A DNA stretch of 64,000 nucleotides from a virus. The notes beneath the pieces were generated by a model. The model did no database searches. It worked only from the letters and a program-made list of their open reading frames with translations, and was not told the origin of the DNA. Positions within the stretch are counted from its first letter, which is position 1. Every line of letters begins with the position of its first letter. Where the stretch lies: positions 108,520-172,519 of the IMG/VR virus record IMGVR_UViG_3300036399_001571. One strand, 5' to 3'. The translations under genes were made by a program, and so were the position numbers. This document shows, piece after piece, positions 1-17,547 of this stretch.

Positions 1-54
1 ACAGAGCCCCGTCTTTGCCTTTGTTTGGTTGGTTTGCGGGGCTTTTGGGCGCAC

Positions 55-88
55 GAAAAAAAAGAGGGGCAGGTTTCCCCACCCCTCT
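55..88 (-). terminator. Rho-independent terminator
   Basis: AGAGGGG/CCCCTCT stem (63-69/82-88) followed on the minus strand by a T-run, just downstream of CDS 113-535. Confidence 0.65.
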
Positions 89-112
89 CTCCTTTTCGGT
101 AGCCAGTTGTGA

Positions 113-535
113 CTAGAGGTACTCCGACACCGACTTGAGAGTAGATGCGCTCACATACTCTTGGTCAGTCATCTTGAGGACACGGATTGCCTGCTTGATT
201 TCGTCAGTCTCGCGCTCGTACCTGTGTTCAGGGTATGTATCAACCTGTGTAGGTTCGGTTGGGAGTGCTGACTTTGGCAACTCCATAGTGACGCTGAACT
301 CCACCGTCTTGCTCTTGGAGTTGCTGGAATACCAACGCTGACGGCTTGCGTCAGTTATCACGCCCTTGCTCTTGACGAGTTTGAGGATAGCCAAGTTGTA
401 GGCTTCCTTTTCCTTCTCAAAACGGGCTTCCTCTTTTTCTTGATTGGCGAAACGCTGTTGGCGCTCTACCAATGCTTTCTCTAGTGATGAGATGAGAGTA
501 CCCACCTTCACCTTGACGGATATTGACTTACTCAT
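113..535 (-). CDS. hypothetical phage protein (140 aa)
   Basis: ORF with GAAAGG RBS and upstream conserved promoter. Confidence 0.8.
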   Translation of the reverse strand: MSKSISVKVKVGTLISSLEKALVERQQRFANQEKEEARFEKEKEAYNLAILKLVKSKGVITDASRQRWYSSNSKSKTVEFSVTMELPKSALPTEPTQVDTYPEHRYERETDEIKQAIRVLKMTDQEYVSASTLKSVSEYL

Positions 536-693
536 TATGCCCTGCCTTTCGTAGTAGTTGATTGGGGCAGTAACGACATTACAACACCCGATATCAGATT
601 TACAAAGTGCTTTCCGCCACCGTCATCTAAACACCGATACTTGACAAGCCCTCTCACACCTGCTAGCGCACCAACTTTTTTCGGCTGGTTGGG

Positions 694-707
694 CGAACAT
701 ATGTTCG
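694..707. promoter_or_regulatory. LexA/SOS-box-like palindrome CGAACATATGTTCG
   Basis: Matches actinobacterial CGAAC-N4-GTTCG; intergenic. Confidence 0.6.
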
Positions 708-797
708 GTGAGCCCCGGTGGGTCAGCCCGCACGGCGGGGCTTATTCATAAAAAATGGCAGAGAGCTCGAAGCCCCCTGCCTAATTTTTATCGAGTG

Positions 798-1202
798 TCA
801 GTCTCTCCACTCCGTGACCACTGGCGTCAAGTCCATGCTCTCTCTGCTGTTGTTTATCATGGTGCCCAACTCCAAGTCATGTGAAGCCTCTAGAGCCATG
901 TTGGCAAAGTGTTCTGTCATGAAGTCGCTCGGAACGTCAGTGTCATAGCCTTCATCGTCAGCGATACCGACCAGCACAGCGTCACCAGCGAGAACCCTGC
1001 GGAACAACAAAGACGTGATGTTGTTTGTCGGCAGGTCAATGAGCAAGCCTTCGTCATGTACGTAGGCAGTAACGCCCATTTCCCAATCGTTCACACAGTC
1101 AAACCAGCCACCAACTAATTCGTGAATGACGGTATGCGCACCGTCACGTGGAATGTCAATAGCGGTTACTTCACCGCTTGTTTTCACGAGTACTGCTTTC
1201 AT
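798..1202 (-). CDS. DUF3846-like phage protein
   Basis: LVGGWFDCV, VHDEGLL..LPTN, LAGDAVLVG motifs; RBS and promoter upstream. Confidence 0.7.
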   Translation of the reverse strand: MKAVLVKTSGEVTAIDIPRDGAHTVIHELVGGWFDCVNDWEMGVTAYVHDEGLLIDLPTNNITSLLFRRVLAGDAVLVGIADDEGYDTDVPSDFMTEHFANMALEASHDLELGTMINNSRESMDLTPVVTEWRD

Positions 1203-1271
1203 TTTTTCCCTCTTTCGTAGTAGTTGATTAGAGATTACAGGAATAGATATCAGATTTACAAAACAATTTGA

Positions 1272-1436
1272 TTAGTGAACTAAATTACTTTCGGGAACGA
1301 TTGCGAGTGGGTCAAACTTTCCTGAACCACTTACACGAACCAAGTAACGCAGGTGATTGTCGTAACCAACAACCACTCCACTGATGATGTTCCCGTGATT
1401 GTCACGGTACGCCACCTGCGAACCCTCGTCTTTCAT
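1272..1436 (-). CDS. small hypothetical protein (54 aa, MKDEGSQV...)
   Basis: ATG after GAAAGGGG RBS and promoter at 1477; shorter than the ORF-track call. Confidence 0.65.
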   Translation of the reverse strand: MKDEGSQVAYRDNHGNIISGVVVGYDNHLRYLVRVSGSGKFDPLAIVPESNLVH

Positions 1437-1618
1437 AAGCACCCCTTTCGTTGAGTAGTAGTACCTTACAGGAACCGATATCAGATTTACAAAAATACAT
1501 AGCCCCGCTAGCTTTGCGACAGGTTGTACAGCGGGGCTTTCATAGCGGCAAATAGATTGCGCTGCGCACCCATTACTAGAAGTGGGTTCTGTTGCCAAGC
1601 CCCACTCGGCTCCGTTTG

Positions 1619-1861
1619 TTAGACAGTGATGGTTCCACCTTCCCAAATGCCTCGGGTGCGGTGTCCTACCAGTGGATACTCATAGTTGAGGTATCCAAGT
1701 GGGTAGTCCGCAGCGAAGCGATTTGTTGCGATGACGGTCGCCATGTCAATGCCACAGCGCTCCAAGTCACGCACAAAGGACAGAATCAGGTGTGTGTAAA
1801 CCACACGCTGACGAATCATCTGTCCATCGTGGAACTGAAGAATGCTCTTTTTCATATTCAC
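1619..1861 (-). CDS. hypothetical protein (80 aa)
   Basis: GTG start after AAAGGGGG RBS; promoter at 1922. Confidence 0.7.
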   Translation of the reverse strand: MNMKKSILQFHDGQMIRQRVVYTHLILSFVRDLERCGIDMATVIATNRFAADYPLGYLNYEYPLVGHRTRGIWEGGTITV

Positions 1862-1972
1862 CCCCTTTCAAAGAAGTGTGGTTCGAGCGGTTCTCGAACG
1901 CAGTAGCACCTTAGTAAACCCGATATCAGATTTACAAAACAGCAAGGGCGCAAATAAGCCCCGGCACAACTC

Positions 1973-2143
1973 CTACCGCATGCTCCCTGAATACATTCTG
2001 TCCTGAAGGTCTGCGAAGTGATAATCGCACAATGAAACGGTAATAACGCCACTCTCATACTGGCGCACAGTGCCACCGCACATATCTGCGCTATCGGCAT
2101 TGGTGTCGTATTCTCGGCATTGTTGGTGTGTTTGGTTATTCAT
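1973..2143 (-). CDS. small hypothetical protein (56 aa, MNNQTHQQC...)
   Basis: ATG 9 nt after the -10 box of promoter 2167, near-leaderless; below ORF-track cutoff. Confidence 0.55.
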   Translation of the reverse strand: MNNQTHQQCREYDTNADSADMCGGTVRQYESGVITVSLCDYHFADLQDRMYSGSMR

Positions 2144-2301
2144 AGTGATATGACCTTATCAAACTAGATATCAGATTTCCAAATTGAACAATAAGCCCCG
2201 GCATTAGGAGAAAGCAATACCTCTAATGAGGCGGGGCTCCTGGCCAAATAAGTGACGCAGGTTTCCCCACGCCACCTAATCGGTTGAACTTGCTTCGCTG
2301 A

Positions 2302-2604
2302 TTATTCCTCGTAGCGAAGGTCGTAATCCTCAATGTCGTCACACCATGCGCCAAGGTGGTGAGATTCAATGATTGCCCATGCAGGCGCACTCGTCTTACC
2401 CTTCCACGACACACCTTCAGGCAATTCAATGAGTTCATCCCCACTGAAGTCTGCGTTGTAACTGTCAATTGCTTGAATGCACACTGGCACCATTGACAAT
2501 GGCACTGGCGGGTAGTGATTACTCCGCAGGTGGATTGCTAGGGCTGTATCCAGTGATAGGCCCATGTCGTTGTCGGCTAGTTCGCTTGCTAACTGATTAC
2601 CCAT
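2302..2604 (-). CDS. hypothetical phage protein (100 aa)
   Basis: ORF with AAGGGGG RBS. Confidence 0.75.
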   Translation of the reverse strand: MGNQLASELADNDMGLSLDTALAIHLRSNHYPPVPLSMVPVCIQAIDSYNADFSGDELIELPEGVSWKGKTSAPAWAIIESHHLGAWCDDIEDYDLRYEE

Positions 2605-2893
2605 TATTTGCCCCCTTCAGGACTAGTAGTAGTGAAGTTGGTGGGAGCCTGTCGGGGGACATTTCCATCCCCCGATTAGCGTTATAGGACACTCTTCAGT
2701 CCCACCAACAGTAAACACTTTACGGTATGCGATATCAAATTTACAATTCACGACTGGCCACCCCTGCGCCTTCAGGAGCGTGGTTTGAGCCCCGCATACC
2801 AACTGTCTTGGGTGTTGGAGTGGCGGGGCTATAAAGCCAAAAAAGTCGAGCAACCTACTGGCTGCCCGACTTCTCGGAGGGTTTTACTGGCGC

Positions 2894-3133
2894 TTACTGG
2901 CGCTGGAGTTTGTACAACTCGTAAATCCAGCCAGTGCCACCGCCGTAGTGATACTTCTCACCAACAGTGTTCTTCATTTCGTACAGCGCGTCATCCAACA
3001 TGTAGATGGCTCCCTCTCCTTCTTCGCTCTCGAGATTCCTGAGCATTTCAGTCATCTCATCGAGCAAGGTCCTAAGTTCTTGGGCGATTTCCCCAACACT
3101 CTTTACCTTTTCTTCTTCCAGTATTTCGTCTAT
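2894..3133 (-). CDS. acidic hypothetical protein, apparent ATA start, possible paralog of 3490-3738
   Basis: 79-codon open frame after AAAGGGG RBS; YHYGGGTGW resembles YWYGSADGW of the neighbour. Confidence 0.5.
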   Translation of the reverse strand: MDEILEEEKVKSVGEIAQELRTLLDEMTEMLRNLESEEGEGAIYMLDDALYEMKNTVGEKYHYGGGTGWIYELYKLQRQ

Positions 3134-3153
3134 GTCTTTCCCCTTTGTTCGAA

Positions 3154-3169
3154 TGTTCCACGTGGAACA
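3154..3169. promoter_or_regulatory. parS-like palindrome TGTTCCACGTGGAACA
   Basis: Perfect 16 bp palindrome (20 bp with flanks) matching the chromosomal parS consensus. Confidence 0.65.
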
Positions 3170-3241
3170 TTTCCTTACAAGACCAACTCTAGTACACCTG
3201 ATATCAGATTTACAACTTCACTTTTTAGCCCCGTCTTGGGG

Positions 3242-3255
3242 CGAACATATGTTTG
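3242..3255. promoter_or_regulatory. LexA-box-like CGAACATATGTTTG
   Basis: One mismatch to CGAAC-N4-GTTCG, ~25 bp upstream of promoter 3200. Confidence 0.5.
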
Positions 3256-3316
3256 CAGCCGTAGGCGGGGCTATAAAACTAAAATGTCGGGCAACCGATT
3301 TGGCTACCCGACACTT

Positions 3317-3493
3317 TCAGTCGATTTGGATTTTGTCAAACACTTCGGCTCGAGCATTGAGCATCGCCCAATGAAAAGCGTCCATGAAAATCTGCTGCTT
3401 CTCTGCCGACCTGAACTCTCGCTCGGCGTGGGCTCGAGCCTCGGCGGTCTTAACCGCCAAGAGCCCGACCCACCACTCGACCTTCTCGTTCAC
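3317..3493 (-). CDS. small hypothetical protein (58 aa, MNEKVEWW...)
   Basis: GTG overlaps the TGA of 3490-3738 (translational coupling). Confidence 0.55.
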   Translation of the reverse strand: MNEKVEWWVGLLAVKTAEARAHAEREFRSAEKQQIFMDAFHWAMLNARAEVFDKIQID

Positions 3494-3738
3494 CAGTTAG
3501 CCGAGTTAAACGGCTCTTTGTTTGGTTCTTTGAGCGCTCGCTCCCAGCCGTCGGCACTGCCGTACCAGTAACTTCCCTTGTAATCACTGACGATGTAGCC
3601 GAGTTTCCCTAGCACTGCTTCCTCGATTGTCTCGTCCTCGGGTTGGCTGTCGAGTATCTCGAGTAGTTCGAGTACCGCTTCCCTGATTTCATCAAGAGCC
3701 TTCGCTCCTGCTTTCCGCACCTCTACTTGACCTTCCAT
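3490..3738 (-). CDS. hypothetical protein (82 aa)
   Basis: AAGGGG RBS; promoter TTGCAA-17-TAGAGT at 3798-3826. Confidence 0.75.
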   Translation of the reverse strand: MEGQVEVRKAGAKALDEIREAVLELLEILDSQPEDETIEEAVLGKLGYIVSDYKGSYWYGSADGWERALKEPNKEPFNSANW

Positions 3739-3759
3739 TACTTTCCCCTTTTCTCGGAA

Positions 3760-3775
3760 TGTTCCACGTGGAACA
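3760..3775. promoter_or_regulatory. parS-like palindrome TGTTCCACGTGGAACA
   Basis: Second perfect copy (22 bp palindrome 3757-3778) in a 5' leader. Confidence 0.65.
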
Positions 3776-4030
3776 TTCGGTTTTTCTTACAAGACCAACT
3801 CTAGTACACCCGAAAGAGAATTGCAACTTTTATTTATAGCCCCGCAGAAGTTTTTTTCATTTAACATACAGATGACATACAGGTAACATACAAATTTTCG
3901 TCAGCAGAAGGGCAGGCGGGGCTGTTTTGAGAAAAAAATAAGCCACACCAAAACTCAACGCAGGTTGAAAGGGGTAAAACGCGGAGTAATGGTGTGGCTA
4001 TTTATTAGTAGGTATTGCTACCCACTAAAC

Positions 4031-4285
4031 CTAGTTTGACATTTCGTGAGTTTGCTCGTCAAACCTTCCAACTAAGTGAGGCTGTAATACCTCGTTGTAT
4101 CCGTCTGCAATACTGCAAGCCTGCGAGTGAGAAACACAGGGCATTGAGTATTGTAGGAAGTCGCTACTGTCTCCAGTAGGTGACTGAATATGAAGCATTA
4201 CTGCCCAAGTAGTAGAAACCCCATAAACCTGCATTGGGTCGTGGACTACTTGTGCGCTAACGATAGAACCTTTACCTGATTTCAT
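4031..4285 (-). CDS. hypothetical protein (84 aa, MKSGKGSI...)
   Basis: TAATG overlap with upstream gene; GAAAGGT RBS. Confidence 0.6.
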   Translation of the reverse strand: MKSGKGSIVSAQVVHDPMQVYGVSTTWAVMLHIQSPTGDSSDFLQYSMPCVSHSQACSIADGYNEVLQPHLVGRFDEQTHEMSN

Positions 4286-4533
4286 TACTTGCCTACCTTT
4301 CCAGTAGTGAGTGTTTGCTCTAGGACTAGCCACGAGTGACCAGAACTTGTGTTTGCGTGGATTTGGAAACTGTAAGTGTTGTAGTCGCCTACACTCTCCC
4401 AGTATTCCGAAGCCTCGTCAGTTGCCAACCAAGCCTCACACTCTTTACGAGTGTCTGCCTCAAAGGCTGGCGTGTCGCTATCTGGGAGACAGCCTGCGCT
4501 TGCCCACCAAACCTGATAAACGGTATGTTTCAT
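4285..4533 (-). CDS. hypothetical protein (82 aa)
   Basis: AAGGGG RBS; promoter at 4597. Confidence 0.75.
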   Translation of the reverse strand: MKHTVYQVWWASAGCLPDSDTPAFEADTRKECEAWLATDEASEYWESVGDYNTYSFQIHANTSSGHSWLVLEQTLTTGKVGK

Positions 4534-4739
4534 AATTTCCCCTTTCCGAGAAACTTACGGGGATACTTTCCCCGTTGAGATAACAGTACAGGACTAGATA
4601 TCAGATTTACAAAATTACTTATTGCGCTTTATTACTGCGTAGATATAGGTAAAGATAACGCCACTAAGAAACCCAATAATTAGCCCTTGTGTGTACATAA
4701 CTGCTTGCACGATTTTTTCTTTCCGTTGTAGGTGATACT

Positions 4740-4768
4740 AAATTACAGGCTTGTAGTGATTATGTCAA
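4740..4768 (-). promoter_or_regulatory. sigma-A-type promoter TTGACA-17-TAATTT
   Basis: Canonical -35, 17 bp spacer, extended TG -10. Confidence 0.6.
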
Positions 4769-4865
4769 GGATTTCGATATAGCCCCGCATATCGGGCTGA
4801 GCCCGTCTAATAGCCGGGGCTCCGGGAAAAATTTCAGCCGGGTGAACAGGCTGAAACTGGTGGGC

Positions 4866-5120
4866 TCACCAAGTCGAAAGGTCGACGCCCCCGTGTGGGA
4901 AGTTCTCGGCGAAGCCTGTCGTCCAAATCGAGTTGCCTGTTGGGCACCTGTAAGTGTCGTGCTCCCCGAGCTTGTCCAGTATGTCCACGATGACTTCGTC
5001 ACCAGCGACTGTCACCAGTATCACATGGCCCTCGTAGACCTTGTATGAGCTGTCGCCAGCGTTGATGTATGTACCAATGCGCAGCTTCTCTGCGTCTACG
5101 AGCTGTGGCGTGTAGTTCAT
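4866..5120 (-). CDS. hypothetical protein (84 aa, MNYTPQLV...)
   Basis: ATGA overlap with upstream 41-codon ORF 5117-5242. Confidence 0.6.
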   Translation of the reverse strand: MNYTPQLVDAEKLRIGTYINAGDSSYKVYEGHVILVTVAGDEVIVDILDKLGEHDTYRCPTGNSIWTTGFAENFPHGGVDLSTW

Positions 5121-5335
5121 TCCCAATCCAACCCGTCTGTGAAGGCCTCGTTCTCTGCGTACCACGCAAGGTCGTCCTCTTGTACGAGGTGCCCGTCCAG
5201 TGTGTACTCCCCGTCATCCCACGGGTTGAATTCTGCTTTCATTTTGTGCCCCTTTCAGTTGGCCTTGCTTCCGTGCTCCAAACATTACAACACGCGATAT
5301 CAGATTTACAAAACGGGCGAACAGGCCAGCCCGGG

Positions 5336-5349
5336 CGAACATGTGTTCG
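5336..5349. promoter_or_regulatory. LexA-box-like CGAACATGTGTTCG
   Basis: Exact CGAAC-N4-GTTCG upstream of promoter 5296. Confidence 0.6.
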
Positions 5350-5450
5350 TGCGCGACCCGGAGTCCCGGCTATCAGGCGCGAGCGCCGGGGCTCATGGAA
5401 AATTTTGGGGGTGTAACAAGGTTTTTATTCCCTGTCACACCCCCTCGGGT

Positions 5451-5768
5451 TTAGAACTCGTAGGAGTAGTAGTACCTGCGACCGCTCAGGTGAAGCACAG
5501 CCCAACTATCCAACGAATCACCAATCTGAACCCACCTTCCGTTTTTGCGGAGTGTAAAGCAAGCGGTTGGGTTGTTTGGGTTTGGTGTAATTTCCCAGTC
5601 GTTGCTGTAAGGCTTCGCACCTTCGGCTGGCTTGACATCGTCTTGCTGAACGATAATCTTCTTGCCGTTTTCACTGACGAAAACAATCGTTACTGAGTGA
5701 GTGTCCACTCCGTTGCTTACGTGTGCGCCGTTTCCGACTACTGGCTTTATTCTTTCCTTGGTTTCCAT
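5451..5768 (-). CDS. hypothetical phage protein (105 aa)
   Basis: GAAAGGGG RBS; promoter at 5818. Confidence 0.8.
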   Translation of the reverse strand: METKERIKPVVGNGAHVSNGVDTHSVTIVFVSENGKKIIVQQDDVKPAEGAKPYSNDWEITPNPNNPTACFTLRKNGRWVQIGDSLDSWAVLHLSGRRYYYSYEF

Positions 5769-5935
5769 TGTGTCCCCTTTCGTGGAACTCGTTTACAAAA
5801 TAAACTTTACAGTACGCGATATCAGATTTACAAAAATTGGAATTTTTTACATAGCCCCGCTGCCGGATTTTTTATTACTATGCCGGGGCTAGCTAAGAAA
5901 AAAGAGCAGGCGCTTTCGCACCCACTCTCTCTCCG

Positions 5936-6127
5936 TTATCGGGTTGCGGACTGCACTCGGTCAGCGAGGTTCTTGATGGCGATTTGCAGACTAATCGTTA
6001 CCATGTAGAGGTAATGATTTTCAATTTTGTCCTTTTTGTAAATCTCTAGGATTTCTTCCCGTGTCTTGATGAGTGACAGGATTTCGTCTGCGCATTCTGT
6101 AAGACTGAGTGTGTTGTCTGTTTCCAT
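5936..6127 (-). CDS. hypothetical protein (63 aa)
   Basis: GAAAGGGG RBS; promoter at 6181. Confidence 0.7.
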   Translation of the reverse strand: METDNTLSLTECADEILSLIKTREEILEIYKKDKIENHYLYMVTISLQIAIKNLADRVQSATR

Positions 6128-6199
6128 TTCGTGCCCCTTTCGTAAGGCTTGTTGTTGTTACTGATTACATTACAGCAAGCGATATCAGATTTACAAAAG

Positions 6200-6213
6200 C
6201 GAACATGTGTTTG
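6200..6213. promoter_or_regulatory. LexA-box-like CGAACATGTGTTTG
   Basis: One mismatch; abuts the -35 of promoter 6181. Confidence 0.5.
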
Positions 6214-6305
6214 CCCAGCCCCGCTGCACCTTCGTGTAAAGAATTTATGCCGGGGCTTTCAGCAATGAATATCGTTGACTGAATAATTCATAAAGTGAAA
6301 ACGCA

Positions 6306-6338
6306 ACCGGGGAGACTCGGTGGTGAAGTCTCCCCGGT
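6306..6338 (-). terminator. strong hairpin, probable terminator
   Basis: Perfect 12 bp stem ACCGGGGAGACT/AGTCTCCCCGGT right after the stop of 6345-6632. Confidence 0.65.
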
Positions 6339-6344
6339 CAGGAT

Positions 6345-6632
6345 TTAGTAGACGACTACCGAGGCCTTCGTCCACTTGGTGAATGAGTGAGTGCTAGGCA
6401 CTCCGTCAATGGTGAGCACTAGGAACTTTCCTGCGTTGCTCCACTTTTTATTCTCAGGTGCAATCTTTGAAATTGTTCCCGTTGCGTATCCCCACGCCTG
6501 TCGCTCACGGCGTGTGGTGTTCTTTCCGAACAGGCGAGCTTCAGTCTCGCCAGTCACCGTGTTGGTGATATAGCCAACCAGTATTTGGTCGCCGACTTCT
6601 AGGTCGCTTACTTTTACCCTTGTTGTTTCCAT
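6345..6632 (-). CDS. hypothetical protein (95 aa)
   Basis: GAAAGGGG RBS; promoter at 6675. Confidence 0.75.
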   Translation of the reverse strand: METTRVKVSDLEVGDQILVGYITNTVTGETEARLFGKNTTRRERQAWGYATGTISKIAPENKKWSNAGKFLVLTIDGVPSTHSFTKWTKASVVVY

Positions 6633-6684
6633 TGCTATCCCCTTTCAGTTGGATAAATAAATCGTACAACAAGCGATATCAGAT

Positions 6685-6858
6685 TTACAAAATACCCTCG
6701 AGCCCCGCAGTCGCGGTTACAGACGCGCTCTCTGCTGTCATCAAGTGAAGTCGTATGTCAAGAAGCAAGTCCTGCATTTCGCTTGAGGCTACGAGTTCAC
6801 GGCTAGAGATATTGACTAGCGCCTTATCAAGAAGTGTGATTATTTCTTTTTCGTTCAT
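6685..6858 (-). CDS. small hypothetical protein (57 aa, MNEKEIIT...)
   Basis: ATGA-coupled to the upstream gene; its TAA stop is inside the next promoter's TTGTAA. Confidence 0.5.
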   Translation of the reverse strand: MNEKEIITLLDKALVNISSRELVASSEMQDLLLDIRLHLMTAESASVTATAGLEGIL

Positions 6859-7037
6859 TGTGGGCAGTCCTCGTATGGGTTGGGGTTTCCTTCATTGTCC
6901 TCGCAAGAACAGAAGCCGAATAATTCTACTTGAGTTTCGTGAGTGAGTTCAGTCAAGTCCTCGTATGACGGGGAGCCCCGTAGTTCCTCTATCACTAAAC
7001 TCCAAAAATCCACAAAAAGTTTCTCTTGTGAGTTCAC
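6855..7037 (-). CDS. small acidic Cys-containing protein (60 aa)
   Basis: GTGA overlap with upstream gene; GAGGGG RBS. Confidence 0.5.
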   Translation of the reverse strand: MNSQEKLFVDFWSLVIEELRGSPSYEDLTELTHETQVELFGFCSCEDNEGNPNPYEDCPQ

Positions 7038-7231
7038 TTCTTGCCCCTCATCTCCAAGCCGATTAGTACTACGGCAACTCCGACTAACACTTGACTTACT
7101 CCTACCCACTGAAGGATAGAGGCGAGTTCGTTACCCGTGAGAGAGGCGTAGGCGTTCTCTTTCTGCCAGAACCAAGCACCGATTAGTGCGCTTACTGAAC
7201 CAAGTCCAATAATCCAGTCGGGCTTATTCAT
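7034..7231 (-). CDS. small membrane protein (65 aa)
   Basis: Two hydrophobic segments; coupled to upstream lipoprotein gene. Confidence 0.6.
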   Translation of the reverse strand: MNKPDWIIGLGSVSALIGAWFWQKENAYASLTGNELASILQWVGVSQVLVGVAVVLIGLEMRGKK

Positions 7232-7707
7232 TACGCACTCCTCATTGGGCATACTTCCCAAAAAGCACGATAGAAATCACTTGCCGCGTCATTCACATCG
7301 GTTATGTAATTGTTCACCGATAGGTCACGCCTTTCTGATTCCCAATAAGCGTTGTAAGCGTCTAGATATTCATCTATGACATTTACAAAAACACTTTGCT
7401 CAAAAGACACGGTTGGTATGTCAAGTGTTCTCACATACGAGCGAAGGTCTCGTAAGGCACTCACCTTCGCCTCATATTCAGACCGACTTGGTATTCCTCC
7501 GTTGTCTGTTGCGTTTTCCCACGACGCTTCTACATCGTCTGCGAGTAGTGAGATTTTTTCAGCAACAACCTTATTGCAGTCTTTGCCATAACTAATTGTT
7601 GTAGTTGTCGCAATGGTTGTTTCCACTGCTACGGGCTCACTGTTGCCACAAGACGAAATACTCATTACGAGTATCGCCCCTAGTAATACTGTCTTTACTG
7701 CTTTCAT
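7231..7707 (-). CDS. putative lipoprotein (158 aa)
   Basis: MKAVKTVLLGAILVMSISSC signal with lipobox Cys, then Thr-rich linker. Confidence 0.65.
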   Translation of the reverse strand: MKAVKTVLLGAILVMSISSCGNSEPVAVETTIATTTTISYGKDCNKVVAEKISLLADDVEASWENATDNGGIPSRSEYEAKVSALRDLRSYVRTLDIPTVSFEQSVFVNVIDEYLDAYNAYWESERRDLSVNNYITDVNDAASDFYRAFWEVCPMRSA

Positions 7708-10003: not shown

Positions 10004-10195
10004 CTAGCCAAGCCTCATTGCGCCAATTGTTGGGTTCATTTCTCCAAGCGTCTTGCCAGCCGTATTGTTCGTGACGGCAACCCGAGCGTCAAGGTTGTTG
10101 AGTGCCACCTGAACTGCGTCAAGTTTCTTGTTTATTTCCTCAACCGAATTCATTACCGACTTCATTGCTTGTTCTAACGAGGCTTCTATTTCCAT
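10004..10195 (-). CDS. small coiled-coil protein (63 aa)
   Basis: MEIEASLEQAMKSV... heptad-like pattern. Confidence 0.45.
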   Translation of the reverse strand: MEIEASLEQAMKSVMNSVEEINKKLDAVQVALNNLDARVAVTNNTAGKTLGEMNPTIGAMRLG

Positions 10196-10225
10196 AACGC
10201 CAAGCATAGCAAGTATGATGAGCCA

Positions 10226-12148
10226 GTGAGACTTTATCTTGACCACGATTTACTAGCCCTTGACTTCCCGTATGACCCAGCACAAGTTGCCGAAGTCAAG
10301 TCAATAGCCGGGGCTAGCTGGGACAAGGTGGACAAACTGTGGAAAGCACCCGTAGCCTCAATTGACGAGGTGCGAGCCTTTGCGATAAAGCACGATTTTG
10401 AGATAACAGACGAAGTACTTAGGTTCACTGCCCCAAAGAGAGCGTCACGAAAAGGTGTGTATCTCAAAGGTGACTGGACTTATATCCAATTCCCCTATGA
10501 CAAGGTTGTACTCAAAGCAGTAAAGCAAATAGCAGGGGTAACTTGGGATAACAAAGAGATGGCGTGGAGAGCGCCACTTACCTCAACAGCCGAAGCAATA
10601 GCGTGGGCTAACTCATTTGGAGTACTTGTGTCGCCCGAAGTACACGGAGTATCTGCCTCAATGACTAAGAAGTTAGATGAACTAAAGGAAGCCTCACGCT
10701 CAACCGACGCTGATATAGAAGTGCCTTCACTACAAGGAACGCTACTGCCTTACCAAAGAGCAGGCGTGGAGTATGCGTCTAAAGCCCGTAGAAGTTTTAT
10801 CGCAGACGAAATGGGACTTGGAAAGACGATACAAGCGATAGCGACACTGGAATATTCGTCAAAAGATAGCGAAGTGTACCCAGCAGTAATCGTCTGCCCC
10901 CCTTCACTTGTACTGAACTGGAAGTCGGAGTGGAATAGGTGGTTGCCTGATAGACGAGTTGCCGTTGTAACCAACCGTAGAGAGATACCAGAGCCCCGTT
11001 CATATGATGTGCTCGTTGTCGGATACTCAAATATTTCTCACTGGGAAAAGCAACTACTTGCGCATAACTCTTATGTGTTTGACGAGAGCCACTACGCCAA
11101 AAGCCCAACGGCACAGCGAACTAAGTCGGCTATAAAAATGGCAAAGAGTGCCCCTAAACACGGGATAGTCCTATGTCTTACTGGAACACCCGTAACCAAT
11201 AGACCAGCGGAGTACGCCAGCCAATTAGACATAATCGGAAAACTAAAAGAGTTTGGTGGCTTGTGGGGATTTTATAGACGGTATTGTTCAGCCTTCCAAG
11301 ACAGGTTTGGTCAATGGAATATCAGCGGTCACTCGCACCTTGACGAACTCAACGACAGGCTTCGTGGTACTTGCTATATCAGACGAACCAAGTCGCAAGT
11401 GCTTACTGAACTGCCACCCGTGATACACAGCACCCTTGTAGTAGAGGGGACTGATGCGGGGCTCAAGGAGTATCGGAAGGCAGAAAAAGACATAATAAAG
11501 TACATAACCGATAGAGCAAAAGAGATAGCGATAGAACTCGGGGAAAGCCCGTACTCGGCTTCGGTTATTGCGAGAATAAAAGCAGAAAGCAACGAACATC
11601 TAGTAAAACTCTCGGTACTTAGACGGCTCGCTGCGAAAGCCAAAATGCCAATGGTTGAGGAGTGGGTACAGTCCCGCATTGACGACGGAAAGAAAGTGGT
11701 AATCGCAGCGCACCATAGAGACGTGGTAGATGAACTCGCACGAAAGTTCGGCAACCTTCGTATTCAGGGTGGTATGTCGGTTGAGGAAGTGGAAGCACAA
11801 AAAGCACGATTTCAGAACGAACCCGTAGAGACTGCGCCAGTTATTGTGTTATCTATTCAGGCAGCGAAAACTGGTCACACGCTTACAGCCTCGCAAGACA
11901 TACTCTTTGTAGAACTGCCATACACGCCAGCAGACCTAGACCAAACTTACTCACGCCTTCACCGAATTGGGCAGACAGGAAGCGTTACGACTACTTATAT
12001 GCTCGTTGACGGGACTATTGACGAGGAAATCTATGCGCTCATAGAAAAGAAGCGCAAGGTAGTGAACGCTTCAGTTGAGGGTGGAGAGTTCGCTGAAGGT
12101 GGCAACGCTACGCAGTTGGTACTTGACTTACTCAACCGATATCGATAA
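10226..12148 (+). CDS. SNF2-family helicase/translocase with two HARP-like N-terminal domains
   Basis: LLPYQ, ADEMGLGKT, DESH, LTGTP, QTYSRLHRIGQ motifs; duplicated FPYD...K.IAG..WD...W.AP. Confidence 0.92.
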   Translation: MRLYLDHDLLALDFPYDPAQVAEVKSIAGASWDKVDKLWKAPVASIDEVRAFAIKHDFEITDEVLRFTAPKRASRKGVYLKGDWTYIQFPYDKVVLKAVKQIAGVTWDNKEMAWRAPLTSTAEAIAWANSFGVLVSPEVHGVSASMTKKLDELKEASRSTDADIEVPSLQGTLLPYQRAGVEYASKARRSFIADEMGLGKTIQAIATLEYSSKDSEVYPAVIVCPPSLVLNWKSEWNRWLPDRRVAVVTNRREIPEPRSYDVLVVGYSNISHWEKQLLAHNSYVFDESHYAKSPTAQRTKSAIKMAKSAPKHGIVLCLTGTPVTNRPAEYASQLDIIGKLKEFGGLWGFYRRYCSAFQDRFGQWNISGHSHLDELNDRLRGTCYIRRTKSQVLTELPPVIHSTLVVEGTDAGLKEYRKAEKDIIKYITDRAKEIAIELGESPYSASVIARIKAESNEHLVKLSVLRRLAAKAKMPMVEEWVQSRIDDGKKVVIAAHHRDVVDELARKFGNLRIQGGMSVEEVEAQKARFQNEPVETAPVIVLSIQAAKTGHTLTASQDILFVELPYTPADLDQTYSRLHRIGQTGSVTTTYMLVDGTIDEEIYALIEKKRKVVNASVEGGEFAEGGNATQLVLDLLNRYR

Positions 12149-12244
12149 GCCCCGCACTCGCTTCCGTTCTGTAAATCTGATATCGGGCTTACTAGGCTTA
12201 CGTTGCCGTAAGGCAAACGAGCCCAATGAAAGGGGGTGAGCAAA

Positions 12245-12421
12245 ATGGAACAGTGGCAAGAGGAGGGTTTCGCTTCAGAGGAGGAATTCTTTGAGTTACA
12301 GCGAAGCCTTTGCGAGGAGGAACAGCGGGCGGAATTCATTATGAGTTACGTCGCTGGTGGTGGCTTGTCAAGCGAGGCGCAAATCGCTTGGTTTCACCAC
12401 AACCACTCGTGGGGCGAGTAA
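12245..12421 (+). CDS. small acidic protein (58 aa)
   Basis: Downstream of plus-strand promoter 12170 and AAAGGGGG RBS. Confidence 0.6.
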   Translation: MEQWQEEGFASEEEFFELQRSLCEEEQRAEFIMSYVAGGGLSSEAQIAWFHHNHSWGE

Positions 12422-12482
12422 CCCACAGAGGCAGGGGCTGGGGCTGGCAACCCTTGTCCCTCGCCTGCGCGTGTGGCGGGGC

Positions 12483-12905
12483 TTACTCGGTTTCTTTGGT
12501 TGGAACTCTGCCCATAAGTTCGTCAGCAATTAGTTTTGCGTACTTTCTGCGCAGTTTCCATACTTTTTGGTTCATTTCAGCCATTGCGTCAGTGTTTCGT
12601 GCTTTCTTTATGCTGTCGCTGTCAAACACGCCGTACTTTCTGAACAAGATGTCGTCAATATCGTTGTTTTCTATCATTATGTCGGTAATCCAATGGCCCC
12701 GCTTGTCAATGCTAAGCAACAGTTCGCAAAGACCCTCAAATCCAAACTCGTTATAGACACGATTAGTCACTAAGTCACAAAAATGCGCACGATACATAGT
12801 CTCGGCTTCGGCAGTGTGCGTCATAAACTCACTCAGCCATACGGCGAGTTCTTCTTTTGACGGAATATCACCGTCTTCACTGTCAAACTCAAAGTCGTCT
12901 TCCAT
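12483..12905 (-). CDS. hypothetical protein (140 aa)
   Basis: ORF with GGAAGG RBS. Confidence 0.7.
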   Translation of the reverse strand: MEDDFEFDSEDGDIPSKEELAVWLSEFMTHTAEAETMYRAHFCDLVTNRVYNEFGFEGLCELLLSIDKRGHWITDIMIENNDIDDILFRKYGVFDSDSIKKARNTDAMAEMNQKVWKLRRKYAKLIADELMGRVPTKETE

Positions 12906-12961
12906 TAGCCTGCCTTCCGTTGCGCCGGGGCTCTAGTAATCAATGATACTTGTGGCAACTG

Positions 12962-13987
12962 TCAAGCCAAAGACAGAATAACTTCTTGCGCTAACACTTT
13001 CTTTTGTGTCACCCACGAGTTGTTGTTCATTGAGGCAAGCGCCCGTTCATCTGCTTTTGCGTCACGATAATGGTCAAGGTATTCAGCAATAGCGTTGTAA
13101 GCACTCCACCCGTTATACCCGTAGCCACCTGCGTTGCGTTCGTTGTCATACACGCCACGAACTAATGCCACTACCCCGTCACGGTTTTTCTTTTGTCTCT
13201 CCGTACCGTTCATTTCGTTCGGGAATACCTTGTCAAGTATCGTTGCGAGTTGCGCACTTCGTGGTGGAACGTTGATAGCAAGCAAGCGATTAGCCGTAAG
13301 TTGGAATGACTTCGCCCACTCCGTTGATATTTCTAGGACTTTTTGCGCTTCCTCAATAGCATTATCAGCGTTACGAGTGTGTCGTGCCGTGAATACCCGA
13401 CGAGCCGACGACTGCCCTGCGATTACCGTGTTTTTACACACCGCACGAATTGAGGTATTGGCAAAGGTGATAGCCGTCTTACCGTCGTGTCCGTTGCGAA
13501 CTAGCAAGTAACGGTCTATCTTGTCGTTGATACCCGTAGGGTCTATGACGAGTTGCCCCAAGTCAAGCGAACTAAAGAACTCTCTACCTTCGTCAAGTAC
13601 GCCACAAGTATCTACTACTGCGTCGCCCTTAGAAGCCCCGACTATTGCGAGGGCATACTCCAAGCACTCACGGTTTTGCTGTACGACATAGCGAGTGCCA
13701 ACCGTAGCAAGTCCGTCAAAAGTGCCGTCGGGGTTCACTCTCACGGTTGCCCGACTGTCCTCAATAACGACTGGCGTATTATCAGGATTTCTGATTAGGT
13801 TGCCCTCTGCGTCTACGACTGCGACTTTAGTAGTGACGACATCAAAGTCTGCTTGCGCCGCCTGAAGCATTGCCTCTGCTGTTTGTAGCCCCTTCATAGG
13901 CACTCCAAGCCTATGCCACGGGACTTCACGGTCTGCGTAAGCCATTTTCGCTACGCCCTTAGTGTCTACTTCTAGCATATGCGCCAT
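12962..13987 (-). CDS. DUF932 / phage-plasmid-like protein (TIGR03299-like)
   Basis: PWHRLG, VGTRYVVQQN, RNGHDGK, IRAVCKNT, WSAYNAIAEYLDH motifs. Confidence 0.88.
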   Translation of the reverse strand: MAHMLEVDTKGVAKMAYADREVPWHRLGVPMKGLQTAEAMLQAAQADFDVVTTKVAVVDAEGNLIRNPDNTPVVIEDSRATVRVNPDGTFDGLATVGTRYVVQQNRECLEYALAIVGASKGDAVVDTCGVLDEGREFFSSLDLGQLVIDPTGINDKIDRYLLVRNGHDGKTAITFANTSIRAVCKNTVIAGQSSARRVFTARHTRNADNAIEEAQKVLEISTEWAKSFQLTANRLLAINVPPRSAQLATILDKVFPNEMNGTERQKKNRDGVVALVRGVYDNERNAGGYGYNGWSAYNAIAEYLDHYRDAKADERALASMNNNSWVTQKKVLAQEVILSLA

Positions 13988-14088
13988 AACTTCGTGCCTC
14001 TCGCTGTTACTTCTAGTTAGATTTATCTAAAGGCAAGCATACACTCGCCCCCTGCCTCACAGTGTATGCCGGGGCTATCTCGACATAA

Positions 14089-14124
14089 CAAAAAGGGGGG
14101 CAGGCTGTGACACCTACCCCCTTC
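14089..14124 (-). terminator. Rho-independent terminator
   Basis: AAGGGGG/CCCCCTT stem with T-run on minus strand after 14137-14361. Confidence 0.6.
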
Positions 14125-14136
14125 GCTTTCGTTTTG

Positions 14137-14361
14137 TTAGTTGTATTCGTTGGTTAGCCAGTCATCACTTGACTTAGTGACTGGCGTAGCGAACTGACCA
14201 AATAACTGGCGAGCATATGGTGCGACAATTTCAGCGCCTCGCTTGACGGTCTGAAACTGCGTCACCTTTCTACCTGCCTTGTATCCAACGGCACTACCTA
14301 AGCCGAACGATACGACTGCTGTCATTGTTAGTAGTACGAGTACTGCGATTATTTCTATCAC
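14137..14361 (-). CDS. small membrane protein (74 aa)
   Basis: N-terminal hydrophobic helix; AAAGGGG RBS. Confidence 0.65.
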   Translation of the reverse strand: MIEIIAVLVLLTMTAVVSFGLGSAVGYKAGRKVTQFQTVKRGAEIVAPYARQLFGQFATPVTKSSDDWLTNEYN

Positions 14362-14397
14362 TTGCTTCCCCTTTGTTAGTAGTAACTTACCTACCTA

Positions 14398-14426
14398 AGT
14401 ATAGGGATAGTCATAGTACTTGTCAA
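14398..14426 (-). promoter_or_regulatory. sigma-A-type promoter TTGACA-17-TATACT
   Basis: Near-consensus boxes with 17 bp spacer. Confidence 0.75.
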
Positions 14427-14532
14427 GTCACCCGTACGACACCCGTAGGCACTTGCGAACTTCACAGAAATACGACTTGTGCCGTGTTTGTGTGGTTGTA
14501 TAGGTGGCGTGGTGGCTATAAGCCCCGGCTTT

Positions 14533-14811
14533 TCACTGCCTCTTGTCGTCTACGAACTCTGCGTATGCTTTCAGTGCTTCATCAGGTGCGCCGTCTACTA
14601 GATATTGGTGCATAACGCCTGCGAGGTCACGCCACTTGCCGTCACTTAGTACCTTCTCGGTAATCGTGTAGCCTTCGTGTTCGGTTGCCCAACTTATTGA
14701 GTGGGGCTGTGCCTTGTGTAGATAAGCAACGGCTTCGTAGTAAGTGCCGAAACTCTCAAGCACTGCGCCGTCTCTCGCTACTTCGTAACTAATCTGCGCT
14801 TCTGTGTTCAC
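14533..14811 (-). CDS. hypothetical protein (92 aa)
   Basis: GTGA-coupled to LysM gene. Confidence 0.7.
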   Translation of the reverse strand: MNTEAQISYEVARDGAVLESFGTYYEAVAYLHKAQPHSISWATEHEGYTITEKVLSDGKWRDLAGVMHQYLVDGAPDEALKAYAEFVDDKRQ

Positions 14812-15080
14812 TTGTCAAACCTCACTTCTTGAGACACTCGGATTACTTGTCCGTACTTCGCCACTAGGTCATCAGTCGCTTTCAGTGTGTTGCCGTGACA
14901 CCACTTGACTGCTAAGCCACTTAGGGTATCGCCTTCCTGAACGATTACTCGGTCAATATCGCAACGATAATTTTCGTCGCCTCGCATTGAGATAATCATT
15001 GCGATAATCGTCACGAGGAATACGAGTGGGAGTGTAATCAGGTCACGCTTGCTTGGTCGGTTTGTGTAGTGGTTGTTCAT
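14808..15080 (-). CDS. membrane-anchored LysM-domain protein
   Basis: TM helix then VIVQEGDTLSGLA; paralog of 7989-8321. Confidence 0.72.
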   Translation of the reverse strand: MNNHYTNRPSKRDLITLPLVFLVTIIAMIISMRGDENYRCDIDRVIVQEGDTLSGLAVKWCHGNTLKATDDLVAKYGQVIRVSQEVRFDK

Positions 15081-15108
15081 TGTCTGCCCCTTTCAGTAGG
15101 TACTAATT

Positions 15109-15137
15109 ACACTAGGGTAGTTTGTGACAAAGGTCAA
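15109..15137 (-). promoter_or_regulatory. sigma-A-type promoter TTGACC-17-TAGTGT
   Basis: 17 bp spacer, upstream of RBS of 14808-15080. Confidence 0.6.
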
Positions 15138-15289
15138 GGATTTCCGAGCCTTATGGGCATTGGGTTATACCCGTAGGGCTACCCGTAGGCACTGCGCCAA
15201 CCTCATAGGGATTAGTAGGTGGCAGGGTGAGTGTGTTGCCACTACCTATGCCGGGGCTTCGAGCTTGCTGTTCGGTAATGGCAGGTGGA

Positions 15290-16072
15290 TTACTTAGTGA
15301 CGGTGCGCTTCTTTGGTGACTTCTTAGTGACTTGCTTCTTTGGGGCGGTGCGCTTGCTCACTGTCACTGATTTGTTTGGCGTGGGTAGCACTGTCACGGT
15401 AATCGCTCTAGCACTCTCAACCACTAGCACTGTCGTTGTTGTCGTTGTCGTAGGTGCTTCGGTAATCACTGGCTCACTCTCAACCACTGTCACTGGCTCA
15501 CTGTCTGCTACTGCTTCGGCTGTCTCGGATACAGGGACTGTCGTAGTCGTGGGTGCGATAGTCGTTGTCGTAGTCGTAGGGGCGAGGGTAGTCGTAGTCG
15601 TAGTCGTGGTCGTAGGTGCTTCGCTCACGGCTTCATTACAACTAACTGAACAGTCGCCATTGGTGACTACTGGATTACTACTAGCACCAACCAACTGATA
15701 GACGGCACTACGAGCGAGGGCGGTATCTATTCCGTCACGCCATAGGGCGAGCATAAAGTTAGGGCGATAGCCGTTGCCACCTGAACCGTGACCAATACCA
15801 ACTCCGACATATTCGCACACTGCGAACCATTGGTGCGCTTTCGCTATCGCCTTACCTAGTGCGCTATGACCACCATTGGAATAGGTAACTAATCTCTCAA
15901 ATGCTTCAGTGCCTATCTCGGTGTCAATAATCGTTATGACTGTCGGTTGCTGTGACGAGGGTGCTTCTCTCGGCTCACTACACTCACTTGCTCTCGCTTC
16001 GGTGATAGTGACAAGGGGTAGCGATAGCGATAGGGCTAGGGCTAATGCGATAAAGGTTCGTGCTTGCTTCAT
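15290..16072 (-). CDS. secreted protein with Thr-rich stalk and Lys-rich tail (260 aa)
   Basis: Signal peptide MKQARTFIALALALSLSLP; poly-Thr runs; PKK-rich C-terminus. Confidence 0.7.
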   Translation of the reverse strand: MKQARTFIALALALSLSLPLVTITEARASECSEPREAPSSQQPTVITIIDTEIGTEAFERLVTYSNGGHSALGKAIAKAHQWFAVCEYVGVGIGHGSGGNGYRPNFMLALWRDGIDTALARSAVYQLVGASSNPVVTNGDCSVSCNEAVSEAPTTTTTTTTTLAPTTTTTTIAPTTTTVPVSETAEAVADSEPVTVVESEPVITEAPTTTTTTTVLVVESARAITVTVLPTPNKSVTVSKRTAPKKQVTKKSPKKRTVTK

Positions 16073-16130
16073 AGTAACTCTCTCTCGGTATGGGCTACCC
16101 GTAAGGCTACCCGTAGGCATTGGAATTTTT

Positions 16131-16487
16131 TCACTTTTTTTCGCTTATCCACTCACCACCACTGGCGAACACTGTCTCTCCCTCATTGGTGAAACTCCAA
16201 GCGTAATCGCAACAAGGCTTTTGCTCATAGGGGCTAGGGTGTGCGCCTTTCTCTAGCGACTTCGCTAGTAGTGGGAATGTCTCTAGTAACTTGACGATAC
16301 AAGCGTGGCAGATATTCCACGACTTAGGTTCACTATCAGACATTAGAAACTCAAGGTTGTCGGTGAAACCACCATAGAAACCAAATGCTTCATAGGGTAA
16401 GCACCAACCACTGTCTAGTGTTGTTGCTGTCGGGTGACTTACGAGCTTGACTTCATCACAAGCGTCACACTTCACTGCGTTGCTCAT
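16131..16487 (-). CDS. Cys-rich hypothetical protein (118 aa)
   Basis: CDAC, CHAC, CC; ATGA-coupled. Confidence 0.7.
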   Translation of the reverse strand: MSNAVKCDACDEVKLVSHPTATTLDSGWCLPYEAFGFYGGFTDNLEFLMSDSEPKSWNICHACIVKLLETFPLLAKSLEKGAHPSPYEQKPCCDYAWSFTNEGETVFASGGEWISEKK

Positions 16488-16777
16488 AGTGCGTACTCTC
16501 CACGCTTACGGCGATAGTGCGATACAAAGTCATCACTGTCGTAGTCACAAGGCGTCCACACTATGTCGGCTTCGCTAAAGGTATCGTCAAGGTGTAAGCG
16601 AACTACTACATAGTCAAATGCGTCATAGGCGTTGTATGCGATAAACCTCATACAGCCTACGAGGGTAGAACGGTGTTCGTAGTGACTAGGTAAGTCATAG
16701 CGACACATACTCCAAGCGTCACCATAAGAGGGACACTCAACCACTGCGTACCTGCGTCTATCTTTCTCAATAGTCAT
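16484..16777 (-). CDS. hypothetical protein (97 aa), probably leaderless
   Basis: ATG 6 nt after the -10 TACGCT of promoter 16798, no SD. Confidence 0.65.
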   Translation of the reverse strand: MTIEKDRRRYAVVECPSYGDAWSMCRYDLPSHYEHRSTLVGCMRFIAYNAYDAFDYVVVRLHLDDTFSEADIVWTPCDYDSDDFVSHYRRKRGEYAL

Positions 16778-16816
16778 AGTGTAAGCGTAGGGTAGGTGAT
16801 ATCAGAATTACTAAAT

Positions 16817-16905
16817 GGGGTAAGCAAGTAGGTAAGAGTAAGCAACGAGGTAAGCGAGTAGGTAGGTAAGCGAGTAAGTAAGTAGGTAGGTAAGTAGGTA
16901 GGTGT
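16817..16905. repeat. low-complexity GTAA/GTAG tract
   Basis: Irregular GGTAAG/AGTAGG/GTAA repeats in an intergenic gap. Confidence 0.6.
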
Positions 16906-17019
16906 TACCCGTATGCTACCCGTGTGCCTTGCGTTAGTCATACTCTCTCAACTTCAGTGCGAAATAGATAAGGGCGATACTTGCTAGGCAGAATAACTCA
17001 AGCACTGTCTCACCACTCA

Positions 17020-17220
17020 TTAGTCATTGCCTTGCGTATCGTTGCTATCCACTGCGTAGTCACTGCTGTCAAGCGTGAACTTAGGCATAACGAATAGCGT
17101 GTTGCCTATGCTGTATGCGTTACGGCTTGCGTTGTAAATTGCGTCAGGGAATAAGCGAACTAAGTCAATTGCTTTCAGTGGCGTATCGCTTAGGTGAACT
17201 ATGTTGCGTATTCGTGCCAT
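17020..17220 (-). CDS. hypothetical protein (66 aa)
   Basis: ATG after AGTAAAG; start uncertain. Confidence 0.5.
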   Translation of the reverse strand: MARIRNIVHLSDTPLKAIDLVRLFPDAIYNASRNAYSIGNTLFVMPKFTLDSSDYAVDSNDTQGND

Positions 17221-17233
17221 TGTCGTTGTCGCT

Positions 17234-17458
17234 TTACTTCGTACTAGCGACTGCGTGTGCGTAATAAATATCGTCACACCACTCTGCCAACTTCACTAAG
17301 TCGGCGACTAACGAACCTTGCGAGTTGAGCAACCCACGCAACCCATCAGGCAATGTTTGTGAATTGCTGTCACCACTGCGTGTTGTGTTGTGTATCGCCG
17401 TGATTAGGTCGCTAGCAATTTTTGCTATGTCACCAAAGTCGTTTGCGTTGTATACCAT
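17234..17458 (-). CDS. hypothetical protein (74 aa)
   Basis: AAGGGGG RBS; promoter at 17501. Confidence 0.65.
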   Translation of the reverse strand: MVYNANDFGDIAKIASDLITAIHNTTRSGDSNSQTLPDGLRGLLNSQGSLVADLVKLAEWCDDIYYAHAVASTK

Positions 17459-17547
17459 AATGCCCCCTTGTGTAGTAGTTACGGTAAGCATAGCGTATGC
17501 GATATCAGATTTACAAAACGCCTTCCAGAGTGGTAGGCGGGGCTCTT

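Follow-up and report, generated by a model that had tools for sequence, protein, structure and literature searches.

We report that a seven-base word, AGCCCCG (CGGGGCT when read on the other strand), marks out one internal block of about 34 kb in the virus genome held as IMG/VR record IMGVR_UViG_3300036399_001571, and that within this block it is strictly kept, selected as DNA and placed in helical register with the promoters. The stretch under analysis, here called the window, comprises 64,000 nucleotides, being positions 108,520-172,519 of a single 172,519-bp virus record; coordinates are those of the window unless they are given as genome positions. We suggest that AGCCCCG is the recognition word of a sequence-specific protein that binds double-stranded DNA and controls transcription of what appears to be an early gene block, most likely by shutting it off or insulating it, a reading in which we place about as much belief as doubt.

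The heptamer is confined to one internal block

The window holds 40 exact copies of AGCCCCG/CGGGGCT, 20 in each strand sense, all of which lie within positions 5-17544, and the remaining 46 kb hold none. Dinucleotide-preserving shuffles of the window contained a mean of 4.4 copies of AGCCCCG and a maximum of 10, against the 40 in the real sequence. The original prediction, made from the letters of the window, had confined the enrichment to its first 17.5 kb. This is correct as far as the window goes, but the field passes the left window edge and continues for about 16 kb, to genome 92,567. The full record contains 56 copies, none of them outside genome 92,567-126,057, and the k-mer count along the full genome is accordingly far from uniform, with 56 copies in 34 kb and none in the other 138 kb. 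These copies are balanced at 28 per strand, and they display neither the genome-wide spread nor the strand or orientation bias of a Chi-like hotspot.

Local composition does not account for the enrichment. Markov models of orders 1-3 predict 2.7-5 copies of AGCCCCG inside the block, and outside the block the core hexamer GCCCCG is depleted, with 2 occurrences seen against 12-28 expected, ranking ninth among the most depleted of 2,080 hexamers under a maximal-order model. The copies are also evenly spaced. With each pair treated as a single locus, neighbouring loci in the dense core of this genome are separated by a mean gap of 604 bp (range 229-1276 bp), and the coefficient of variation of these gaps is 0.39, against 0.97 under random placement (P < 5e-5). 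The same picture recurs in relatives: a complete 160-kb relative carries 57 of its 57 copies in 34 kb and a relative on a 90-kb contig carries 56 of 56 in 32 kb, with coefficients of variation of 0.41 and 0.45, respectively. To call the word a regional DNA mark, as had been proposed, is therefore a fair description, and one that holds in complete relatives too.

That this region might map to a genome end found no support in the record, where the block sits at 54-73% of the length and thus in the interior. The first and last 1.3 kb of the record share 82% identity, and its ends interrupt a giant open reading frame (ORF); from this terminal repeat we conclude that the sequence is probably circular and was opened within an internal repeat. 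The giant ORF is on the minus strand and crosses the record junction, occupying window 58051-63999 and genome 1-5085. Its window part, of 1982 aa, contains a Sigma70_r4 helix-turn-helix (HTH), ArdC-N, an MPTase-PolyVal zincin and WYL domains, and is thus a polyvalent protein.

One option named in the original prediction was coating or protection of first-injected DNA. The word would then mark the DNA that enters first or is packaged, with a protein ejected from the virion binding it to protect, anchor or pull in the segment. The regional restriction and the even 0.6-kb spacing would fit such a mark, and giant polyvalent proteins with this set of modules (sigma-r4-like HTH, ArdC-N, zincin peptidase, WYL) are of a kind thought to be delivered with the DNA. 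Yet the block is internal to the record, and the relatives assemble as circles, so that no end is defined; the polyvalent HTH module is undetectable in a complete relative with 60 heptamers, for which reason we also rejected the HTH of the giant protein as a universal reader of the word; and the phasing to promoters described below points to transcription, not to entry. We give an entry mark only a slender chance of being the answer.

The word is exact and its pairs do not behave as hairpins

Alignment of the 56 sites shows seven invariant positions, preceded by a base that is rarely C and followed by C or G in 51 of the 56. The fuller form of the site is D-AGCCCCG-S, with AGYCCCG in deeper relatives. 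No conservation is seen beyond these flanking bases, and the sites are therefore not pieces of a longer repeat. Degenerate forms are not enriched: the 21 one-mismatch variants amount to 42 copies in the block, where their density outside predicts about 37, with the lone exception of AGTCCCG, of which five copies lie inside the block and one outside.

Many copies come in pairs. At least ten inverted pairs 18-72 bp apart had been predicted, and the window does contain ten pairs in the convergent arrangement AGCCCCG...CGGGGCT, with spacers of 18-72 nt. Among the 83 unique close pairs found over all loci, relatives included, 72 are convergent, 9 divergent and 2 direct, and their spacing peaks at 24-25 and 31-36 bp. 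Other copies lie inside genes; the six that had been listed (8845, 9561, 10309, 10992, 11457 and 13634) were all found where expected, and a seventh lies at 6974.

Paired arms of this kind could act as an RNA or DNA hairpin, whether as terminator, processing site or stabiliser. If transcribed, the arms would pair at -12 to -22 kcal/mol, and many relatives have a 17-nt spacer. The geometry argues otherwise. The pairs lie downstream of canonical T-run terminators, which are separate elements alongside them, and the pairs themselves have loops of 18-72 nt with no consistent T-run. Pairing stops at the ends of the arms, position 8 being complementary between arms in 28 pairs where 27.9 are expected for independent arms, and the spacers are no more structured than their own shuffles. 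Furthermore, 16 of the 40 window copies are single, the intragenic copies occur in both orientations, and neither Rfam at its gathering score nor a tRNA search of window 1-18000 with ARAGORN returned a match. We also considered a tRNA minihelix of the form AGCCCCG-N17-CGGGGCT, which was rejected on those two empty searches and on spacers without a T-arm. A hairpin function is hardly credible to us. That these are protein-binding sites rather than terminators, as had been supposed, appears on the other hand well founded, given chance pairing at position 8, unstructured spacers, selection on single and intragenic copies in both orientations, and phasing to the -35 box.

The heptamers are phased to the -35 box

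In this genome the heptamer nearest upstream of a -35 box lies 8-11 nt away in eight cases and 19-21 nt away in seven, with further cases at 41 and at 102-105 nt. The distances are concentrated on one phase of a 10.5-bp period (Rayleigh R = 0.69, p ~2e-5, n = 23). In relatives R reaches 0.71 (n = 66) when two promoter families are taken together; a third family, with distances of 3, 13, 23 and 33 nt, gives 0.81. The sequences that separate heptamer and -35 box are unrelated to one another, and the phasing must therefore be kept by selection rather than inherited through duplication. With its 10.5-bp periodicity, this arrangement has class I geometry, that is, sites on one helix face at integral turns from the -35 box. 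Judged from sequence, the phasing is the signature of a DNA-bound protein that would meet RNA polymerase on one face of the helix.

The word is conserved and selected in related phages

Conservation in related phages, on which the original prediction had staked its case, is extensive. A search with the SNF2-family helicase gene of the block (10226-12148, plus strand; three internal heptamers and a further one at the stop codon) returned 53 IMG/VR loci at 58-99% identity, and nearly all of these have AGCCCCG as their top 7-mer, even where helicase identity drops to 58%, across 47-61% GC and despite differing promoters. Deeper lineages are enriched for AGTCCCG as well. Three loci (L113-L115) lack AGCCCCG; a TCCGGAGA repeat in L115 was entertained as a replacement for the heptamer and rejected, for it is that locus's own promoter, of a different type. 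Promoters change even among close relatives. In three loci whose helicases are 92-98% identical to that of our genome (L072, L073 and L076), the early promoters read TTGGAAATTTGGTAT(C/T) instead of TTGTAAATCTGATATC, so that the promoter spacer that seems invariant in this genome is phage-specific, whereas the heptamer is not. That relatives use other promoter sequences also explains why an exact IMG/VR scan for the promoter 16-mer gave single chance matches only.

The individual sites are likewise kept. Where heptamers could be aligned to orthologous positions in relatives, 93 of 104 are exactly preserved, whereas the 78% identity of the 30 flanking bases would predict 27. Coding sequence gives a second view of the same constraint: 16 helicase genes contain 32 internal heptamers where 3.25 are expected under synonymous-codon shuffling, and these internal copies stand in both orientations relative to the mRNA, at positions that vary between lineages. 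An excess in both orientations excludes a by-product of coding, and it argues against a signal specific to one RNA strand. As judged from these comparisons, purifying selection acts on the heptamer at the level of DNA.

Cultured phages provide no close relative. The capsid is at most 48% and the helicase at most 35% identical to actinobacteriophage proteins, and window 1-8000 has no megablast match among cultured phages.

A candidate reader and a possible mechanism

The best candidate binder is a 123-aa protein encoded at genome 94,946-95,317, on the far edge of the block, which joins a helicase-associated (HA) domain to a Sigma70_r4-like HTH. All four long heptamer-bearing relatives have this HA-HTH protein, at 61-95% identity. 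It is present in 32 IMG/VR loci, with a near-invariant recognition helix, LSRQRVHQI(V/L), in which three loci have RIHQI, and in these loci its gene is always found close to the far edge of the block, which leaves 1-3 heptamers to one side of it and 7-14 to the other. None of the cultured phages searched for the HA-HTH protein carries one.

We posit that host sigma-A RNA polymerase would transcribe the block, of about 34 kb, as a series of small genes each with its own promoter and terminator, and that a convergent pair or a single site would sit between each terminator and the next promoter. One protein would occupy each heptamer, reading double-stranded DNA. The promoter-proximal copy would hold its protein on a fixed helix face relative to the -35 box, from which it could touch RNA polymerase, and the extra single sites inside long genes would keep the interval at about one site per 0.6 kb. 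The putative binder would then switch off or insulate early transcription by contact at promoters and by roadblocks within transcription units. Shut-off or insulation of the early genes would explain why the word has been purged from the middle and late genes; conversely, the purge elsewhere, the recurrence every 0.6 kb or so and the placement within long genes favour a factor that is disruptive wherever it is bound. For these reasons shut-off or insulation of early transcription is most likely, being the most economical reading, although it is possible that the protein acts as an activator instead.

A fuller version of the proposal can be offered only tentatively, and we think it rather less likely to be right than wrong. 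In it, a lytic phage compartmentalises its chromosome by a 7-base address. A small protein with a sigma-r4-like HTH, possibly the HA-HTH protein, would read the roughly 56 copies, dock on RNA polymerase at each early promoter and block elongation about every 0.6 kb, thereby silencing or insulating the whole early block, and the word would be purged everywhere else.

Several points weigh against a protein that shuts off or insulates the block. The tie between the HA-HTH protein and the heptamer is one of association, made up of conserved position and sequence conservation. That a protein binds at all, which protein it is and whether it represses or activates are matters that we infer from the pattern of sites, and the direction of control in particular must be counted on the debit side. 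Eight of the 31 promoters share the core of the rest but lack a heptamer within 123 nt, and the sites are therefore not needed for promoter recognition. The statistics gathered across relatives come from genomes that share ancestry and are not phylogenetically independent. Lastly, an exact word without degenerate copies fits enzymes and translocases better than it fits transcription factors.

This last point leads to the reading in which an enzyme confined in its action to the block, such as a nickase, a methyltransferase or a Type III/ISP-like motor, targets the word. An all-or-none 7-mer, head-to-head pairs and strong avoidance elsewhere are typical of enzyme sites. On the other side, no C5 or N6/N4 methyltransferase family (PF00145, PF01555) is detectable in the genome, which weakens the case for methylation, no nuclease is linked to the word, and phasing to the -35 box would not be expected of an enzyme target. 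We consider this a quite improbable account.

Layout of the block and its other elements

From window 1 to 8300 the block consists of small genes on the minus strand, which follow along the transcribed strand the order of gene, GC hairpin with T-run, one or two heptamers, and promoter. We infer that the genes of the block are early from the type of their promoters and from this gene architecture. The promoter 16-mer has about 31 copies in the genome, spanning 95.4-126.0 kb and co-extensive with the heptamer field. In the window the sigma-A-like promoters take the form TTGTAAATCTGATATC-N-TAnnnT, with 16-mer starts on the minus strand at 590, 1246, 1477, 1922, 2167, 2731, 3200, 4597, 5296, 5818, 6181, 6675, 7949, 8362, 16798 and 17501, and on the plus strand at 8414 and 12169. 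At the right edge of the block a 210-aa protein (17617-18249, minus strand) has an N-terminus that resembles a MerR-type HTH by eye and gave no Pfam match; it is possible that this protein reads the invariant promoter spacer, ATCTGATATC. The intrinsic terminator of an upstream cassette lies at 757-781 on the minus strand, and similar terminators are found at 55-91 (identified by eye), 3281-3317, 6304-6340 and 14096-14121.

The leftmost convergent pair (5-43, 25-nt spacer) is flanked by the T-run terminator at 55-91 and, beyond the left window edge, by the next promoter. The pair at 711-742 (18 nt) is abutted by a LexA-type box at 694-707, and in the pair at 1501-1538 (24 nt) the proximal copy precedes the -35 box belonging to the promoter at 1477-1492 by 8 nt. 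The pairs at 2194-2238 (31 nt) and 3227-3272 (32 nt) each lie 11 nt from a -35 box, the latter with a degenerate LexA-type box in its spacer, and those at 2788-2830 (29 nt), 5853-5890 (24 nt) and 6217-6257 (27 nt) lie 41, 19 and 20 nt away, respectively, the last of them downstream of the terminator at 6304-6340. The other two pairs are at 3838-3923 (72 nt) and 4781-4821 (27 nt). The long spacer of the former contains three direct ACATACA repeats about 11 bp apart (3860-3895), iteron-like in look, and the 79-bp spacing of this pair (3838/3917) is kept in L072 and L073. Single intergenic copies stand beside promoters at 1957, 5387, 6701, 7975, 8388, 12148 and 17538, that at 8388 being common to two divergent promoters, and at other gene ends at 9790, 12477, 12926, 14070, 14521 and 15252. 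One of the intragenic copies falls in a DUF932 gene (12962-13987, minus strand).

An arrangement in which constant pairs flank small variable genes raises the question of recombination, and heptamer pairs could be boundary sites, PeSL- or attC-like, that drive the gain, loss and shuffling of promoter-gene-terminator cassettes. The original prediction had named cassette recombination among its options, with breakpoints expected at the pairs, and part of this stands: the pairs lie exactly at cassette boundaries, and homology with the nearest relatives breaks near heptamers, for example at 1946, 3266, 4803, 5381, 5835 and 6257. In T4-like phages, PeSL motifs, which are composites of terminator and promoter, mediate such shuffling (PMC4122927). 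The remainder of the claim fares less well, for mosaic breakpoints are expected in any intergenic DNA, and the genome has no detectable tyrosine or serine recombinase (no Phage_integrase or Resolvase match), an absence that weakens the recombination reading. The arms are moreover perfect 7-mers around unstructured spacers, unlike integron attC sites with their folded, imperfect repeats; homologous exchange needs more than seven bases; an essential-looking helicase gene contains single copies under selection; and helical phasing to the -35 box is left unexplained. We therefore doubt that the pairs are recombination sites, and think it rather unlikely.

The block also holds sites of host type. 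LexA-type palindromes, CGAACnnnnGTTCG, occur at 694-707, 5336-5349 and 17548-17561 and at genome 103,170, each 2-5 nt from a heptamer, and degenerate copies are found near 3246 and 6198. The 5' leaders of small genes contain two perfect parS-like palindromes, TGTTCCACGTGGAACA (3154-3169 and 3760-3775), and the same phage has a ParB_N-domain gene at genome 13,004-13,204. The LexA-type boxes, the parS-like palindromes and a WhiB-family gene (9142-9459, plus strand) all point to a host among the actinobacteria. A ribonucleotide reductase search of bacterial genomes for the host returned only phage contigs binned into metagenome-assembled genomes.

It is conceivable, then, that a hijacked host regulator or nucleoid protein reads the heptamer, being put to use as an activator, a counter-silencer or a decoy. 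Such a reader would suit the host-type sites in the block, some of which abut heptamers, and the constancy of the word across phages of 47-61% GC with differing promoters. The half-site of DosR, GGGACT, resembles the heptamer variant CGGGACT and would speak for a host reader as well, but the arrangement of the heptamers is the reverse of the DosR box. A host reader is further opposed by relatives in the clade that are wholly without the word and by the Arthrobacter phage Mimi, unrelated but sharing DUF932, which has 1 heptamer in 41 kb and no enrichment. We judge a host reader unlikely, though by no means a negligible possibility.

Other words share parts of the region. The element tGACGGTGG(C/T)GGAA is confined to it in eight copies, all on the minus strand, at genome 92,476-109,143 (including window 605-624); four copies immediately precede early -35 boxes, and the other four, in the left part of the block, stand right in front of start codons. 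Relatives have this element too, the heptamer-less L115 among them. Many cassette genes carry the motif (C/A)CTACTAC shortly before their Shine-Dalgarno sequence, in the 5' leaders at 500-8500, and a TACCTAC-rich tract is present at 16813-16940. Over the genome as a whole, GATC is wholly absent from the 172.5 kb and no words are depleted more strongly than the hexamers that contain it (0 occurrences where about 80-110 are expected), which suggests strong avoidance of a GATC-specific host restriction system.

Significance and comparison with known systems

If regional silencing by an address word proves true, it would be a mechanism not described for any phage. How large lytic phages jointly switch off dozens of strong early promoters is poorly understood beyond a few model phages, and nothing is known of early shut-off in this abundant clade of uncultured actinobacterial phages. 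A word that is selected, phased and confined to one block provides a direct experimental handle, with a known oligonucleotide, a named candidate reader and simple predictions. The heptamer also gives a means of recognising the early compartment of metagenomic phage contigs from sequence, and a compact protein-DNA pair of very high specificity may come of it. A full-text search of the literature for the heptamer found no description of the word, the papers returned being unrelated.

Among known systems, the closest are the stoperators of Cluster A mycobacteriophages, which are likewise many copies of a short asymmetric word in the promoters and short intergenic gaps of actinobacteriophages. In L5 and TipsytheTRex they are sites for the repressor, each probably read by a monomer, and are proposed to stop both initiation and elongation; they are 13-mers spread over the whole genome in one orientation relative to transcription, and the protein that reads them is the immunity repressor of a temperate phage (PMC9283540). 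The heptamers differ in several of these respects. In place of a 13-bp asymmetric consensus they have only seven fixed positions, flanked by a weak D at -1 and a weak S at +8; rather than being spread over the whole genome, the 56 sites are all confined to 34 kb of 172 kb; they are divided at 28 per strand, with convergent pairs dominant and intragenic copies in both senses, instead of being tied to the direction of transcription; and no integrase is detectable in this genome.

A second likeness is to the PeSL of T4-like phages, units of terminator stem-loop and promoter that surround small variable genes (PMC4122927, PMC2839356). Here too, a hyperplastic early region has its small variable genes set between repeated regulatory modules with a terminator-promoter junction, and breaks in mosaic homology fall close to them. 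In PeSL, however, terminator and promoter form the repeated unit, whereas in our phage they are separate and vary between relatives, and the heptamer is a further, constant element between them that also occurs inside genes.

The position of the heptamers upstream of the -35 box at whole helical turns recalls two further systems. Class I activator sites of the CRP type are placed in this way. The phi29 protein p4 binds inverted repeats about 15 bp apart and contacts RNA polymerase, repressing early promoters and activating late ones. Unlike these, the heptamers number 56 and include intragenic copies, they are not needed for promoter identity, and their binder is a putative one.

The restriction of the word to one part of the chromosome finds its counterpart in regional chromosome words such as matS, SlmA and Noc sites, parS clusters and KorB operators, in each of which a word in one replicon domain is read by a protein that organises or silences that domain. 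We know of no word of this type with the present sequence in a lytic phage. The known words are longer and mostly palindromic, unlike AGCCCCG, and share with it presence in one domain of the replicon and absence from the rest.

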